DNA of 24,178 nucleotides from a virus. Its lineage: Duplodnaviria > Caudoviricetes. Position 1 is the stretch's first letter. Each line of letters begins with the position of its first letter. Below the pieces are notes generated by a model. That model made no database searches. It worked only from the letters and a program-made list of their open reading frames with translations, and was not told the DNA's origin. The stretch spans positions 1 to 24,178 of the IMG/VR virus record IMGVR_UViG_3300008266_000453. One strand, given 5' to 3'. Positions 8,883 to 18,941 of the stretch are shown piece after piece. The position numbers were made by a program, and so were the translations under genes.

Positions 8883-9202
8883 TTGCTAGGTGGCACCCAA
8901 CCAACGTGAATCTCTTTTGTGCCGCCACTATTCACCCTGCACTCTGGATTGTCACGCAGAAACTCGTCCATGAATGCCTTGTCGCTCCAGCATCCATATC
9001 CAAGCTTTTGGCCCCAAAAGTGGTAAGCCGTTGCCGGTATCGTTGCAATCTTTTGACCAAGTCCTTCTACAGACTTATGTCTTTCAGCATTGAATCGAGC
9101 ATTGGATTGAGCGGCAGCCTTAGCTTCAACTTGATTGCGTAACCAGCCGCGGCGCAATTCTGTCTCAAGTTCTCCAACGAGGTTTTCTGGAATGCTGATC
9201 AT
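8879..9202 (-). CDS. Hypothetical phage protein (head-completion region)
   Basis: 107 aa with IATIP..YHFW...W.D..F...FLRDNPE. ATGA overlaps on both sides. Confidence 0.75.
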   Translation of the reverse strand: MISIPENLVGELETELRRGWLRNQVEAKAAAQSNARFNAERHKSVEGLGQKIATIPATAYHFWGQKLGYGCWSDKAFMDEFLRDNPECRVNSGGTKEIHVGWVPPSK

Positions 9203-9435
9203 ACGCGAGCAATAAAAGTAGTTCCGGGTTCGGGAATGCGGGGCAGTCGGCCCTGGGCGTCATAAATGCCACTGTAGGGGCTGATCTTGTCTGACGGCAT
9301 CGCTGACCCATCTGTGCCCTCAGGCCCGCTGCTGGCAGGCTTTCTGTTCGCTAGGGCCACCAAGTTTGCCGGCGCCTGCACGCCAATGTATCGTTGAATC
9401 AGTTCTGGTATTACCGGAATCGGAAGTACAGTCAT
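9199..9435 (-). CDS. Hypothetical Pro-rich protein (78 aa)
   Basis: Start reassigned to ATG at 9435 (MTVLPIPV) because the longer version runs through tRNA-Tyr. Stop overlaps the next start. Confidence 0.6.
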   Translation of the reverse strand: MTVLPIPVIPELIQRYIGVQAPANLVALANRKPASSGPEGTDGSAMPSDKISPYSGIYDAQGRLPRIPEPGTTFIARV

Positions 9436-9440
9436 AAAAG

Positions 9441-9525
9441 TGGTGGGTGGTAGTGGACTCGAACCAATGATGCCCGAAGGCGGGAGATTTACAGTCTCCT
9501 GCAATAGCCGCTATGCGAACCACCC
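9441..9525 (-). tRNA. tRNA-Tyr (GTA), class II with long variable arm, encoded CCA
   Basis: Acceptor GGGTGGT/ACCACCC, anticodon stem GGAGA/TCTCC with loop CTGTAAA, variable hairpin GCC-TTCG-GGC, T loop TTCGAGT, ending ACCA. One T-stem mismatch. Confidence 0.92.
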
Positions 9526-9533
9526 AATGAAAT

Positions 9534-9608
9534 TGGTTGCAAGGGCAGGAATCGAACCTGCGGCCTCCAGCTTATGAGACTGGCGAGCTGCCACTGCTCT
9601 ACCTCGCT
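9534..9608 (-). tRNA. tRNA-Met (CAT), initiator-like, encoded CCA
   Basis: AGCGAGGTAGAGCAGTGGCAGCTCGCCAGTCTCATAAGCTGGAGGCCGCAGGTTCGATTCCTGCCCTTGCAACCA folds as a cloverleaf. It has a 1:72 mismatch (A:A) and A11:U24 as in initiator tRNAs. Confidence 0.93.
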
Positions 9609-9618
9609 TTTGAAAAAC

Positions 9619-9848
9619 GTGCCGGTACTCTCCCGGCTGTCACACCACTGCGGCGACTGAGTAACCCAGTCCGTGCGCGGCGGCATGCAGCCACCGGCAG
9701 GTGTCGCTTCTTTATTTGTGCCCAAGGTTCGCAGCCTGTCTTCAGACAAGACTGCTACAGGCCCTTCGCTTGCACAAAAGTGTCTCCGTCTCTCCGGAGT
9801 GTCGCACCACTTTTGGCCCCGATAAGGTCGAAGCCACGCAGGTGTCGC
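9619..9848 (-). ncRNA. Candidate structured RNA with two homologous modules flanking a central stem
   Basis: Two copies of GCGACACCTGC...GTGGTGYGACA followed by a hairpin with loop GAGAG(T)A (9781-9848 and 9619-9707). Stem sequences differ but still pair. Confidence 0.65.
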
Positions 9849-9857
9849 GGAAGTCAA

Positions 9858-10940
9858 CTAAGCGGCGTTGTAGTTGAACTTGCCAAGGCCCAGCGGGTTG
9901 CCCACAACCAGACCAGCGACAGCTTCAACCAAGCGGCCGGGACCACCACCATTGTCGGTGAGCGGAGTGACCTGAGCGACATTACCGCCATAGCGGATTT
10001 CGATCAAGTTCATATCCAGCACCAAGCCACGGAACGGAGTGGGCGTGTAGGACGTGCCAGACACGGTTCCGATGAACGTGGTGGGGTGGAGGCGGACCGT
10101 TCCGAAGTCACCTTGGAACACATCCAGACTCTGGATGTAGGTGTCTGCGGCAGCGTCACGCTGGAATGTCTGAACCTTGGTGGCGCCAGCTGCCAGAGGA
10201 GCGGCCTGAGTGCCAGCCACAGTCGTCAGGGAAGTGGTCCCCAACAGGCCGGTGAAGGCGCGCTTCAGATCCGTCCCAACGATGCAATCAAACGAGGTGT
10301 AGTGGCCGGTCTGGTCGAAGATCGACTTGAGCAAGCCCTGCACAACGGCGTCCGTCAACGAGGTTCCAAGAGCGGATCCAGTTCCGATGATCGAGGTAGA
10401 AGGCGTCTGGAAGATCGAGGGAATGCCTCCTGGAGTCGGAGTTCCAGCCCCGCCGGTAGCGATCCATGTCTGGGCGCCGGCCGTGCGGTACGGAGTTGTC
10501 TGATTCCCGCTATCTGCCTGGGCCACCTGATCAGACACCATGGTCACTTCCATGTCGCGCTTGATCCCAGTGATGGCCTTGGCGACGTTGTCTGCCAGCT
10601 CGTCACGCACACCAGCAACATCAGCGATGTCCTGAGTGAGCTTGGACACGCGGACTGCGCGGCGGAAGATCTGGGCGTAGTTGGCCAGCTCAGCACGGTA
10701 GTTGACAACGTAGTTATCAACGCCAGTGGAGAGGTTCACGTCAACGCCGTCAGGAGTGCCGCCAACCTGAGGAGCCGGAAGGCTGTCAGACTGCCATCGG
10801 AAGTACATGTTGCCAGGCTTGGAGCCTTTCTTGGCCATGGACGTAAACGGCGTGTCCTTGGCGTCAACCAAGGCAATCATGTCCATGAGATCTTCGCGCT
10901 TGCCGCGACCGGAGAGATTGGGTTCGAGTAGAGTTGCCAT
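9858..10940 (-). CDS. Major capsid protein (SU10/DUF5309-like, HK97 fold)
   Basis: 360 aa. REDL.D.I..V...DTPF.S, W..D.L, NY.QIF...V.VS and KRDME patterns. Directly follows the scaffold gene. Confidence 0.85.
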   Translation of the reverse strand: MATLLEPNLSGRGKREDLMDMIALVDAKDTPFTSMAKKGSKPGNMYFRWQSDSLPAPQVGGTPDGVDVNLSTGVDNYVVNYRAELANYAQIFRRAVRVSKLTQDIADVAGVRDELADNVAKAITGIKRDMEVTMVSDQVAQADSGNQTTPYRTAGAQTWIATGGAGTPTPGGIPSIFQTPSTSIIGTGSALGTSLTDAVVQGLLKSIFDQTGHYTSFDCIVGTDLKRAFTGLLGTTSLTTVAGTQAAPLAAGATKVQTFQRDAAADTYIQSLDVFQGDFGTVRLHPTTFIGTVSGTSYTPTPFRGLVLDMNLIEIRYGGNVAQVTPLTDNGGGPGRLVEAVAGLVVGNPLGLGKFNYNAA

Positions 10941-17795: not shown

Positions 17796-18941
17796 ATGTA
17801 CAACCGAAACGAAACCCTCTCCGGCGCCGAAGCACGTTCTTTTCTCCGGAACTGGCTCCGGGAAGCCGGCGTAGCGTCAAAGCTTGCCGATTCCCTGACT
17901 ATGGCGGAGTTAAATGAAGCTTGGACGGATGAAAGCAACACGGCCTTGTTGGCTTTGGTTAATCGGCCGGAGCCGAAGCCGGCGCCGGTTGTCTCTTCCC
18001 TTTCGGCCGGGAACGAAACGGCGGCCGCTTTGATGATGCAAGCGCTCGCAATGGTTCAACCGAAGGCGCCGGCCTTGGACGAAGCCCGGATCCTTGAGCT
18101 AATCCGGGAGCATGCTCCGAAGCCGGAACCTTCCGTGGTGCATTACAGCTTCACAACGGCCGCCGGGACGGTAACAACGGAACGCCGGGAACATAGCTAC
18201 TTTCCTTTGATTGTGGCCGCCCTTTCAACCCGGACTCACCTTTGGCTTGTCGGTCCGGCCGGCGGGGGAAAGACAAGCCTAGTCGGAGCGGCCGCCGGGG
18301 TTCTGGGGTTGGAACACCGGGCTTTGTCGGTTTGCGCGCAAACTACCAAAACCGACCTTTTGGGCTTTATTGATGCCACCGGGGTTTACCGGGGAACGGC
18401 CTTCCGGGAGGCCTTTGAAAAGGGGTTTGTCTTTTGCTTAGATGAAGCCGACGGCGGAAACCCCAACGTGTTGGCCGTGCTCAATTCCGCTTTAGCCAAC
18501 GGGGAAATGACCTTCCCGGACGCTACGGTGAAGCGGGGAGAAGGGTTTGTTTGTGTTGCTTGTGCAAACACGTTTGGAAACGGCGCCACCGGCGGTTACG
18601 TTGGCCGGAATCAAATTGACGCGGCCACCTTGGACCGTTTCTTTTTCTTGAACCTTCCCTTGGACCAAGGCCTCGAGGCCTCTCTCGTTGGCGTCTCCGG
18701 GGTTGAATCCCCGGCCTTTGATATGGCCGCCGGTGGAACAACAACGGCCGCCGGTTGGCTTTGGTTTGTGCAGAAAGCCCGGGAAGGGGCGGAGAAGCAC
18801 GGTGTTAAGGTTGTTATTTCCCCGCGTGCTACTATCGGAGGGGCAAAGCTTGCGGCCGCCGGGGTTGGCCTTGAATGGCTCAAGAAAGGCTTTCTCTTTA
18901 AGGCCTTGGATTCCCTCTCCGCTGAAAAGCTTCTCTCCTAA
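17796..18941 (+). CDS. AAA+ ATPase, MoxR/CbbQ/CobS-like (AAA_5 type)
   Basis: Walker A GPAGGGKT, Walker B FCLDEAD, sensor I CANT, arginine finger region RNQIDAATLDRF and sensor II ISPR. Confidence 0.92.
   Translation: MYNRNETLSGAEARSFLRNWLREAGVASKLADSLTMAELNEAWTDESNTALLALVNRPEPKPAPVVSSLSAGNETAAALMMQALAMVQPKAPALDEARILELIREHAPKPEPSVVHYSFTTAAGTVTTERREHSYFPLIVAALSTRTHLWLVGPAGGGKTSLVGAAAGVLGLEHRALSVCAQTTKTDLLGFIDATGVYRGTAFREAFEKGFVFCLDEADGGNPNVLAVLNSALANGEMTFPDATVKRGEGFVCVACANTFGNGATGGYVGRNQIDAATLDRFFFLNLPLDQGLEASLVGVSGVESPAFDMAAGGTTTAAGWLWFVQKAREGAEKHGVKVVISPRATIGGAKLAAAGVGLEWLKKGFLFKALDSLSAEKLLS

Follow-up and report, generated by a model that had tools for sequence, protein, structure and literature searches.

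What are the two structured RNAs that lie between the major capsid protein gene and a pair of tRNA genes in an uncultivated tailed phage, and what might the phage gain from them? The window, that is, the whole stretch of DNA analysed here, is a virus record of 24,178 bases (IMG/VR record IMGVR_UViG_3300008266_000453; class Caudoviricetes). A preliminary description, made from the letters alone, had reported a tandem duplicated motif with a variable insert and a covarying, purine-looped last stem, and had offered several roles for it: a self-cleaving or processing element that releases the tRNAs, a stabiliser of the capsid mRNA, an antiterminator or a protein sponge.

Genomic setting of the units

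The late operon lies on the minus strand, in the order terminase, probable portal, scaffold, major capsid and then virion, tail and lysis genes. The capsid protein is distant from those of cultured relatives, the best matches reaching just 25–40% identity. The gap between its stop codon and the next gene consists of the RNA units, tRNA-Met and tRNA-Tyr (Table 1). Unit 1 starts 9 nt past the stop codon, and homologues of the 78-aa gene come after the RNA array in relatives. Both copies read as they had been described, and their core pattern is far beyond chance. The third stem that had been placed between them is present and belongs to a family of its own, not to the units; the AC that ends unit 2 is ten bases from tRNA-Met, in agreement with the distance of about 10 nt given earlier. 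When the post-capsid interval was scanned against Rfam, the two tRNAs were the sole matches. Elsewhere in the window, a small opposite-strand block carries a gene for an AAA ATPase of PHROG 249 (label: porphyrin biosynthesis; 17796–18941, plus strand).

Table 1. Features of the post-capsid region of the window (subparts are given in minus-strand order)
Feature	Position	Strand	Description
Major capsid protein gene	9858..10940	-	360 aa; PHROG 1328 major head protein, E 5.8e-44; from the ORF list
Unit 1	9782..9848	-	P1 helix with two single-base bulges closes a one-hairpin insert; GUGAC-type linker; P2 hairpin; AC
Unit 1, subparts		-	5' core 9848-9838; hairpin arms 9836-9828/9822-9814; 3' core 9811-9800
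P2 hairpin, unit 1	9784..9799	-	5 bp, GAGAGA loop; part of the constant 3' module; short U run behind
Middle stem	9715..9778	-	Long irregular hairpin, not a copy of the unit; arms 9778-9772/9721-9715; z -2.71
Unit 2	9619..9707	-	Same P1 helix closes a two-hairpin insert; P2 with GAGAGUA loop; AC
Unit 2, subparts		-	5' core 9707-9697; hairpins 9696-9678 and 9671-9655; 3' core 9649-9638
P2 hairpin, unit 2	9621..9637	-	5 bp, 7-nt loop with one inserted U; U run behind
tRNA-Met(CAT)	9534..9608	-	Optional cargo in the post-capsid gap
tRNA-Tyr(GTA)	9441..9525	-	Optional cargo
Next late-operon gene	9199..9435	-	78 aa from ATG at 9435; longer enclosing ORF without PHROG match

Folding of the two units in the window

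The 248-nt region folds better than shuffled sequence (z -2.67), with 2 of 200 shuffles equally good. A covariance model trained on 36 hand-picked copies, unit 1 among them, gave two strong matches only in the window: the training copy, unit 1, at 72.2 bits, and unit 2, which was outside the training set, at 47.0 bits (E 1.2e-14). Folded alone, unit 2 is predicted to prefer an alternative fold (-41.4 kcal/mol) over the family fold (-35.4 kcal/mol), a gap of 6 kcal/mol; because this predicted lone fold differs from that of the family, the structure of unit 2 should be taken to rest on covariation and not on energy. Both P2 hairpins pass a scan for intrinsic terminators, in which a GC-rich hairpin with a U run behind it is sought. 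An antisense target of the c4/CI type was also sought, and the longest matches on the late-operon strand of the window (11–12 nt) were in the range of shuffles.

Consensus structure and covariation

The constant part of the family is a 3' module, GUGAC-N-stem-GA(G/A)AG(N)-stem, whose hairpin is P2; it is often preceded by a covarying helix, P1, which closes the variable domain. The general unit may be written 5'-RAC-NNN [variable domain] NNN-GYGAC-N-stem(4-5 bp)-GA(G/A)AG(N1-3)-stem, usually then A. Some 14 near-invariant bases are thus set on freely varying stems, with a minimal unit size near 45–50 nt and inserts that run from 2–3 nt to about 57 nt. The spacing from linker to loop is 5 or 6 nt in 112 of 117 cases, and the loop is GAGAGA in 117 of 129 distinct tails, most of the others differing from it by one or two bases. 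The closing pair of P2 may be G-C, U-A, A-U or U.G.

Covariation was assessed in sets of copies chosen without regard to the pairing being tested. Against shuffles that ignore relatedness and hence overstate significance, P2 pairs 2–4 were held in 52, 48 and 44 of 56 distinct stems from core-selected copies (shuffled means 26.6, 31.9 and 21.9), and an AAC-led triplet was the pairing partner of the trinucleotide just ahead of GUGAC in 95 of 163 hairpin-selected units (shuffled 30.6 +/- 4.1; maximum 43 in 500 shuffles). Control anchors were without excess, and a strict Watson-Crick parse found 17 triplet types. In the 36-sequence alignment, 94.7% of cells pair, as against 19–47% in slid controls, the core pairs being preset by the search pattern; within the class of unit found in this phage, P1 is nearly invariant, 4 of its 8 pairs never varying in that alignment. 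Structured inserts covary internally. The earlier reading of the motif as a covarying structured RNA with a variable insert is upheld. Among pairs in P2 other than Watson-Crick ones, G.U outnumbers A.C by 10 to 1, an asymmetry that fits an RNA on the coding (sense) strand.

Units with a GAAAGA loop have a P1 partner in just 15 of 67 cases (chance 4.2), which makes the 3' module the constant entity. Beyond the P1 stem, a comparison of 5' with 3' flanks showed no covariation, pairing by the fixed loop being invisible to such an analysis. A cis pseudoknot of the loop with upstream pyrimidines was considered and dropped, there being no conserved pyrimidine tract. We likewise dropped resemblances to the T-loops of the T-box and RNase P, the ghost hairpin of the glycine riboswitch, K-turns, the sarcin-ricin loop and group II intron ends, since the bases that these require vary in the units.

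Distribution of the family

The exact core pattern is present in an estimated 210 or so IMG/VR stretches, with 109 distinct copies among the 120 loci returned. A pattern for the second class found about 920 stretches, chance matches included; a single exact spelling of the hairpin gave estimates of about 730 viral and 1,500 metagenome stretches; and the GAAAGA-loop spelling added 82 further stretches. A structure parser recognised 406 distinct units in the collected loci; in 2.8 Mb of reversed sequence from them, it recognised 0. Other cassettes in the same arrays have this common 3' end and a different 5' half; they make up the second class searched for above. Copies are found both in tandem and dispersed, the dispersed ones numbering up to 11 per genome, some of them partial or degenerate. 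Identical units turn up in differing phage contexts, while copy number and insert type differ among close relatives.

Several cultured phages carry the unit. Phaeobacter phage MD18 has the class seen in the window, between tRNA-Leu genes; phiSHP3 has a unit behind its capsid gene; and in Itty13, IME1369_02 and CS01 it is upstream of the terminase genes. In Mu-like contigs, it adjoins head genes. A scan of bacterial genomes yielded 48 loci, a few of which lie inside ORFs and are probably chance matches, in Gammaproteobacteria, Burkholderiales, Planctomycetes, spirochaetes, Verrucomicrobia, Acidobacteria and others. The covariance model finds matches in 40 of 151 genomes of one marine Pseudomonadales family, with up to 11 copies each. 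A Morganella-phage copy used as query gave one short match in 5,426 genomes of E. coli, and a loose pattern was without excess over control in five bacterial genomes.

Among the checks proposed with the preliminary description were a search for homologues and a scan against Rfam. The search returned hundreds of covarying units from phages and metagenomes. No Rfam 15 covariance model matched over a unit, either in the window (E<=5) or in 100 further loci (E<=3 or E<=10), some of which had been chosen for abiF-like hairpins and hold no unit. The literature searched contains no description of the motif, most subscription papers lying outside that scope. We conclude that this is a real, very widespread and uncatalogued RNA module; it may sit unnamed among the 8,495 IMG/VR candidates of Fremin et al. 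(accessible text of PMC10690425).

What the units are attached to

From the best 80 of 288 capsid relatives, we dropped 10 short and 19 duplicate gaps, leaving 51 distinct post-capsid gaps. Units are present in 51 of these 51, with 1, 2, 3 and 4 units in 13, 24, 10 and 4 gaps, respectively. The shortest gap, at 59 nt, holds one bare unit. In 63 of the 66 measurable loci among those 80, the first unit begins 6–13 nt behind a stop codon.

The tRNAs are much less constant: just 7 of the 51 gaps contain one. A same-strand tRNA lies within 300 nt of 66 of the 406 units. For 35 of the 406, a tRNA starts downstream, 33 of them at 2–15 nt and so at no fixed distance, and for 14 a tRNA ends within 60 nt upstream, at 0–30 nt. 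Among the hairpin-selected units, 16 of 280 have a same-strand tRNA within 70 nt downstream, and 0 of 280 an antisense tRNA nearby. Because all 51 gaps have units and only 7 have a tRNA, release of the tRNAs, the role put forward first in the preliminary description, is not the main job of the element.

The units are tied, rather, to whatever precedes them. The 302 hairpin-selected units fall into 228 upstream sequence families, and sequence identity collapses within about 5 nt past the P2 hairpin. Among related pairs of units, kinship is confined to the upstream side in 126 (23 groups) and to the downstream side in 21 (7 groups), which puts the unit where conserved blocks end on their 3' side. 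The recurring upstream families that end in the module number at least 32 (L780-L861, L295-L535), and each is a candidate unnamed RNA family. Going beyond the preliminary description, we regard the motif as a superfamily in which the 3' hairpin module stays constant and is joined to hundreds of distinct RNAs. One should keep in mind that upstream-only kinship is equally expected from one RNA family with a variable 5' domain.

No shared partner gene was found when 1,140 flanking ORFs from 281 loci were clustered, the only clusters being those of related phages or of at most 6 loci. Pfam scans of three sets of neighbours (129 from 45 bacterial loci, after 3 of the 48 were dropped; 113 from phages and metagenomes; and 78) found no family in common. 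Many bacterial copies lie among island or defence genes (integrase, AlpA, restriction and methylase genes, Schlafen and OLD-type ATPase; also transposases), and several face a gene on the opposite strand. A riboswitch was rejected, since the 129 bacterial and 113 phage or metagenome neighbours share no downstream family and some copies face opposite-strand genes. A U run follows just 47 of 282 units overall, so that the module is not a general terminator; in this phage family, TTTT is present in 34 of 47 last units versus 14 of 46 inner units.

Companion RNAs in the arrays

The arrays mix classes of unit with the middle stem, tRNAs and abiF-like hairpins. The middle stem was found in 12 IMG/VR stretches (L590-L601), and each of its 6 distinct versions begins just 3' of a unit. 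Its tip varies, a second variant being present in L704 and L721, and a relaxed form is found in 15 of the 80 capsid-selected loci. It is a separate, small and uncatalogued family of cargo RNA.

Solitary abiF-like hairpins, of which the window has none, were found in 48 phage stretches (L602-L649; 41 distinct; e.g., L609:1501-1539 and L607:1501-1539). Although these were selected independently of the unit, 17 of the 41 lie within 400 nt of one. They score 26.6–36.5 bits against RF03085 in 17 of 20 loci, the gathering score being 37, and none of 15 long ORFs downstream of them encodes an Abi_2 toxin. The unit itself is a different motif that does not match RF03085, and a test for a Type III or AbiF RNA antitoxin found no recurring toxin family beside it. 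Because abiF motifs neutralise the AbiF toxin in cis and in trans, according to the accessible text of bioRxiv 2025.04.15.648962 and of a review (PMC12737573), the toxin-less hairpins are plausible antitoxin-mimic decoys.

Chromosomal copies

Some bacterial copies look promoter-driven and stand alone, with very short inserts, and several have GAC changed to GGC. A CYTACA box, noticed by eye and post hoc, lies within 120 nt upstream of 12 of 26 well-conserved copies from marine Gammaproteobacteria, which are not independent (three palindromes include orthologous loci), versus 2.2% of control windows and 1 of 126 phage units. Among held-out, more divergent copies, 1 of 32 has the box. In three copies, a full GacA-type palindrome ends 57–60 nt ahead of the unit; the accessible text of PMC4353343 gives a spacing of 59 nt for the upstream sequence (UAS) of rsmY. 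At most, this hints that some bacterial copies may be regulated RNAs in their own right. In an uncultured marine Pseudomonadales family (G003, G005 and G002; L563-L577), such palindromes precede both the unit and a gene for a small conserved protein (L568, L575).

The likeness to RsmY and RsmZ is confined to a few chromosomal copies, which are found in CsrA-encoding genomes and have a GacA-type box ahead of them, spaced much as for rsmY; unlike those RNAs, the unit has at most one GGA in its constant part. CsrA is encoded in 5 of 5 host genomes tested, and RsmY scored above the cut-off in none. We rejected a CsrA sponge as unlikely because GGA is not kept, being lost with a U-A or A-U closing pair.

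Some further features of these loci may be recorded. In the same Pseudomonadales family, a GacA-type palindrome also stands ahead of a stretch rich in GGA (L571), a candidate for the Csr sRNA of that family. One locus (L689; G089:C1:1351900-1357100) has three units in 4.2 kb, two of them downstream of genes with a PEP-CTERM-like sorting signal at the end, as judged by eye. In spirochaetes (L129, L139 and L166), units are flanked by a tRNA-like remnant (recognised by eye) on one side and a parA gene on the other, and two of these three have a compensatory change from C-G to A-U in the core helix.

Proposed function and alternatives

We tentatively favour, at somewhat less than an even chance, the view that the units are a portable 3'-end tag by which the capsid mRNA is processed or protected, along with cargo RNAs, among them tRNAs and solitary abiF-like hairpins. 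Of the other roles in the preliminary description, a stabiliser or processing element for the capsid mRNA is, as far as sequence can tell, the one that fits best. The module, presumably transcribed as part of the late mRNA, would mark where that long transcript is cut or trimmed and would shield the RNA upstream. The GA(G/A)AG loop and the GUGAC/RAC junction, 5–6 nt apart, could come together as a single compact fold, or as a single site to which a conserved host factor binds; 3' exonucleases would be stopped by that fold, or an endonuclease guided by it. Stabilising the capsid mRNA would fall to the first unit, while further units would release and stabilise the RNA inside or before them (variable inserts, the middle stem and abiF-like hairpins), with the result that the phage could make cargo RNAs at capsid-level abundance. 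The tRNAs would be optional passengers, their 5' ends being made by RNase P as usual.

An end tag ranks first because it covers the presence of units in every post-capsid gap of the set (even as a bare unit), their location where blocks end, their grouping in arrays and the absence of a partner gene. Structures at the 3' ends of polycistronic RNAs are known as stabilisers or processing signals: REP hairpins behind stop codons, T-phi of T7 behind the capsid gene, tRNA-like t-elements and mascRNA. The unit is like these in its tandem copies and in its place, directly behind a stop codon or where an RNA block ends, from which it would protect or define the end of the upstream RNA. It differs in closing a variable structured domain with near-invariant GUGAC and GA(G/A)AG at fixed spacing, in mostly having no U run, in not being tRNA-shaped (no ARAGORN or Rfam call) and in spanning many phyla. 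A hairpin that only stabilises could have almost any sequence; with GUGAC and GARAG nearly invariant, an end tag would have to rely on a tertiary fold or a factor. Two further points weigh against it: the near-invariant P1 of this phage's class exceeds what an end tag should need, and the bacterial copies that look stand-alone would have little to protect, their inserts being very short.

A new class of small self-cleaving ribozyme ranks second, though it is unlikely. The P1 junction and the GARAG loop would dock as an active site that cuts at or near the unit, and both products would be stabilised by the ends left behind, a cyclic phosphate at the 3' end and a hydroxyl at the 5' end. Near-invariant bases on varying stems, fixed spacing, a small minimal size and tandem or dispersed copies all suit such an RNA; the absence of a partner protein among the 129, 113 and 78 scanned neighbours and the cross-phylum range suit one that works without a host factor. 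Phage ribozymes are also typically found in the neighbourhood of capsid, terminase and tRNA genes. Rfam holds models of the known self-cleaving ribozymes, and hammerhead, twister, twister-sister, pistol, hatchet, HDV-like and hairpin ribozymes were all missing from the matches in the window and the further loci, as the preliminary description had supposed for hammerhead, twister, pistol and HDV/theta. This silence counts against a ribozyme, as do the mere two helices in series, the lack of covariation beyond P1 in the flank analysis, the frequent loss of the 5' partner and the change of GAC to GGC in some bacterial copies. A close parallel is the theta ribozyme, a minimal HDV-like RNA that sits 3' of tRNAs; the accessible text of PMC10879173 sets a cut site within 5 nt of the tRNA 3' end as the criterion, finds it within 1 nt in 77% of associated cases and proposes a role in processing polycistronic transcripts. 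The units are likewise small phage RNAs beside tRNA genes, but they do not occupy that position: they are mostly 5' of the tRNA at variable spacing, have a tRNA nearby in a minority of cases and score with no HDV-type model. Self-cleavage could also be the chemistry behind the same end-tag role. A wider proposal, which we also hold to be unlikely, is that the GUGAC-GARAG module is a new minimal self-cleaving or self-acting RNA, used by phages of many phyla as a universal cassette tag that cuts libraries of decoy or regulatory RNAs, antitoxin mimics included, out of the capsid transcript; the array would then be a protein-free counter-defence.

Less probable is a decoy acting in trans, in which the whole unit, made in bulk behind the capsid gene, titrates a conserved host protein or a defence nuclease. 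Pseudo-ToxI and RNA anti-CRISPRs are precedents for decoy RNAs, the same slot holds solitary abiF-like hairpins and tRNAs, copy number and insert type vary in close relatives, GacA-type boxes precede some chromosomal copies, and Tad2-like and Acb2/Tad1 genes make up 2 of the 113 scanned phage and metagenome neighbours. Against this, no cognate toxin or partner gene was seen beside any copy among the scanned neighbours, the promoter box was recognised post hoc in non-independent copies and nearly vanished from the held-out ones, GGA is not kept, and presence in all 51 gaps (best 80 of 288 relatives) looks like a need in cis and not like optional cargo. Doubtful, and placed below the decoy, is an antiterminator or antipause element of the nut/put type, in which the nascent unit would modify RNA polymerase, directly or via Nus factors, for the tail, lysis and tRNA genes downstream. 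The GA(G/A)AG(N) loop resembles the boxB loop of lambda nut (a short stem with a purine, GNRA-like loop), sites ahead of terminase or tail genes and in tRNA clusters would suit, and RNA polymerase is common to all hosts. The put element of HK022 offers a similar layout, two adjacent stems in about 70 nt, and, in the accessible text of PMC9378689, occurs once per operon, either right behind early promoters or 270 nt away from one. The units, by contrast, are in arrays at gene ends, have no boxA and no recurring N-like partner, show kinship upstream and not downstream, are conserved letter for letter across unrelated phages with a second stem of just 4–5 bp, and in some bacterial copies face genes on the opposite strand. 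We consider it highly improbable that the motif acts as DNA, either as a recombination or integration site or as a small non-autonomous mobile element. Dispersed and sometimes degenerate copies (up to 11 per genome), identical units in different phage contexts and bacterial neighbours such as integrase, AlpA, transposases and restriction genes, in the set of 78, would fit, but the excess of G.U over A.C, the covarying inserts and the same-strand bias of nearby tRNAs (16 versus 0 of 280) do not, and the 242 neighbours in the other two sets (129 bacterial plus 113 phage or metagenome) include no transposase or integrase. Lastly, the ncRNA arrays of UG27 reverse transcriptases, with sequence-diverse units of about 135–167 nt tied to the RT locus (accessible text of bioRxiv 10.64898/2026.09.22.753630), are also variable phage arrays of structured units that are gained and lost; they are a different system, no reverse transcriptase being found among the scanned neighbours of our units.

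Annotators gain an RNA signature of 20–25 bases that is widespread yet missing from Rfam. With over 200 distinct sequences ending in it, the module can also serve as bait in the search for unknown phage RNAs. Were it to cleave itself, the known ribozymes would gain a class. Were it to act by blocking nucleases or by binding a host factor, phages would have in it a small, transferable stabiliser of RNA, and it would point to a conserved target in the host that they exploit.

Other elements near the units

A conserved, structured-looking element of about 60 nt lies behind the last unit in 13 of the 80 capsid-selected loci (L714 from 2759, L732 from 2667 and 11 more). In Cronobacter phage CS01 (L292:1643-1675), the unannotated reading ANDDLMLMAA-stop, which we take to resemble a tmRNA tag, is found about 120 nt behind a variant unit, where ARAGORN calls no tmRNA; in another locus (L093), a unit lies just ahead of an Rfam tmRNA match of 44 bits. 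Two metagenome or phage loci have anti-defence genes close by: an Acb2/Tad1 gene upstream of the unit in L338, and in L443 a Tad2-like gene upstream with a TROVE (Ro60-like) gene downstream. An ar14/CcsR-like hairpin pair (L280:449-546; 33.6 bits, below threshold) is located near a unit and a tRNA, and a CRISPR-DR34-like repeat (L637:1827-1862; 30.5 bits) near an abiF-like hairpin.
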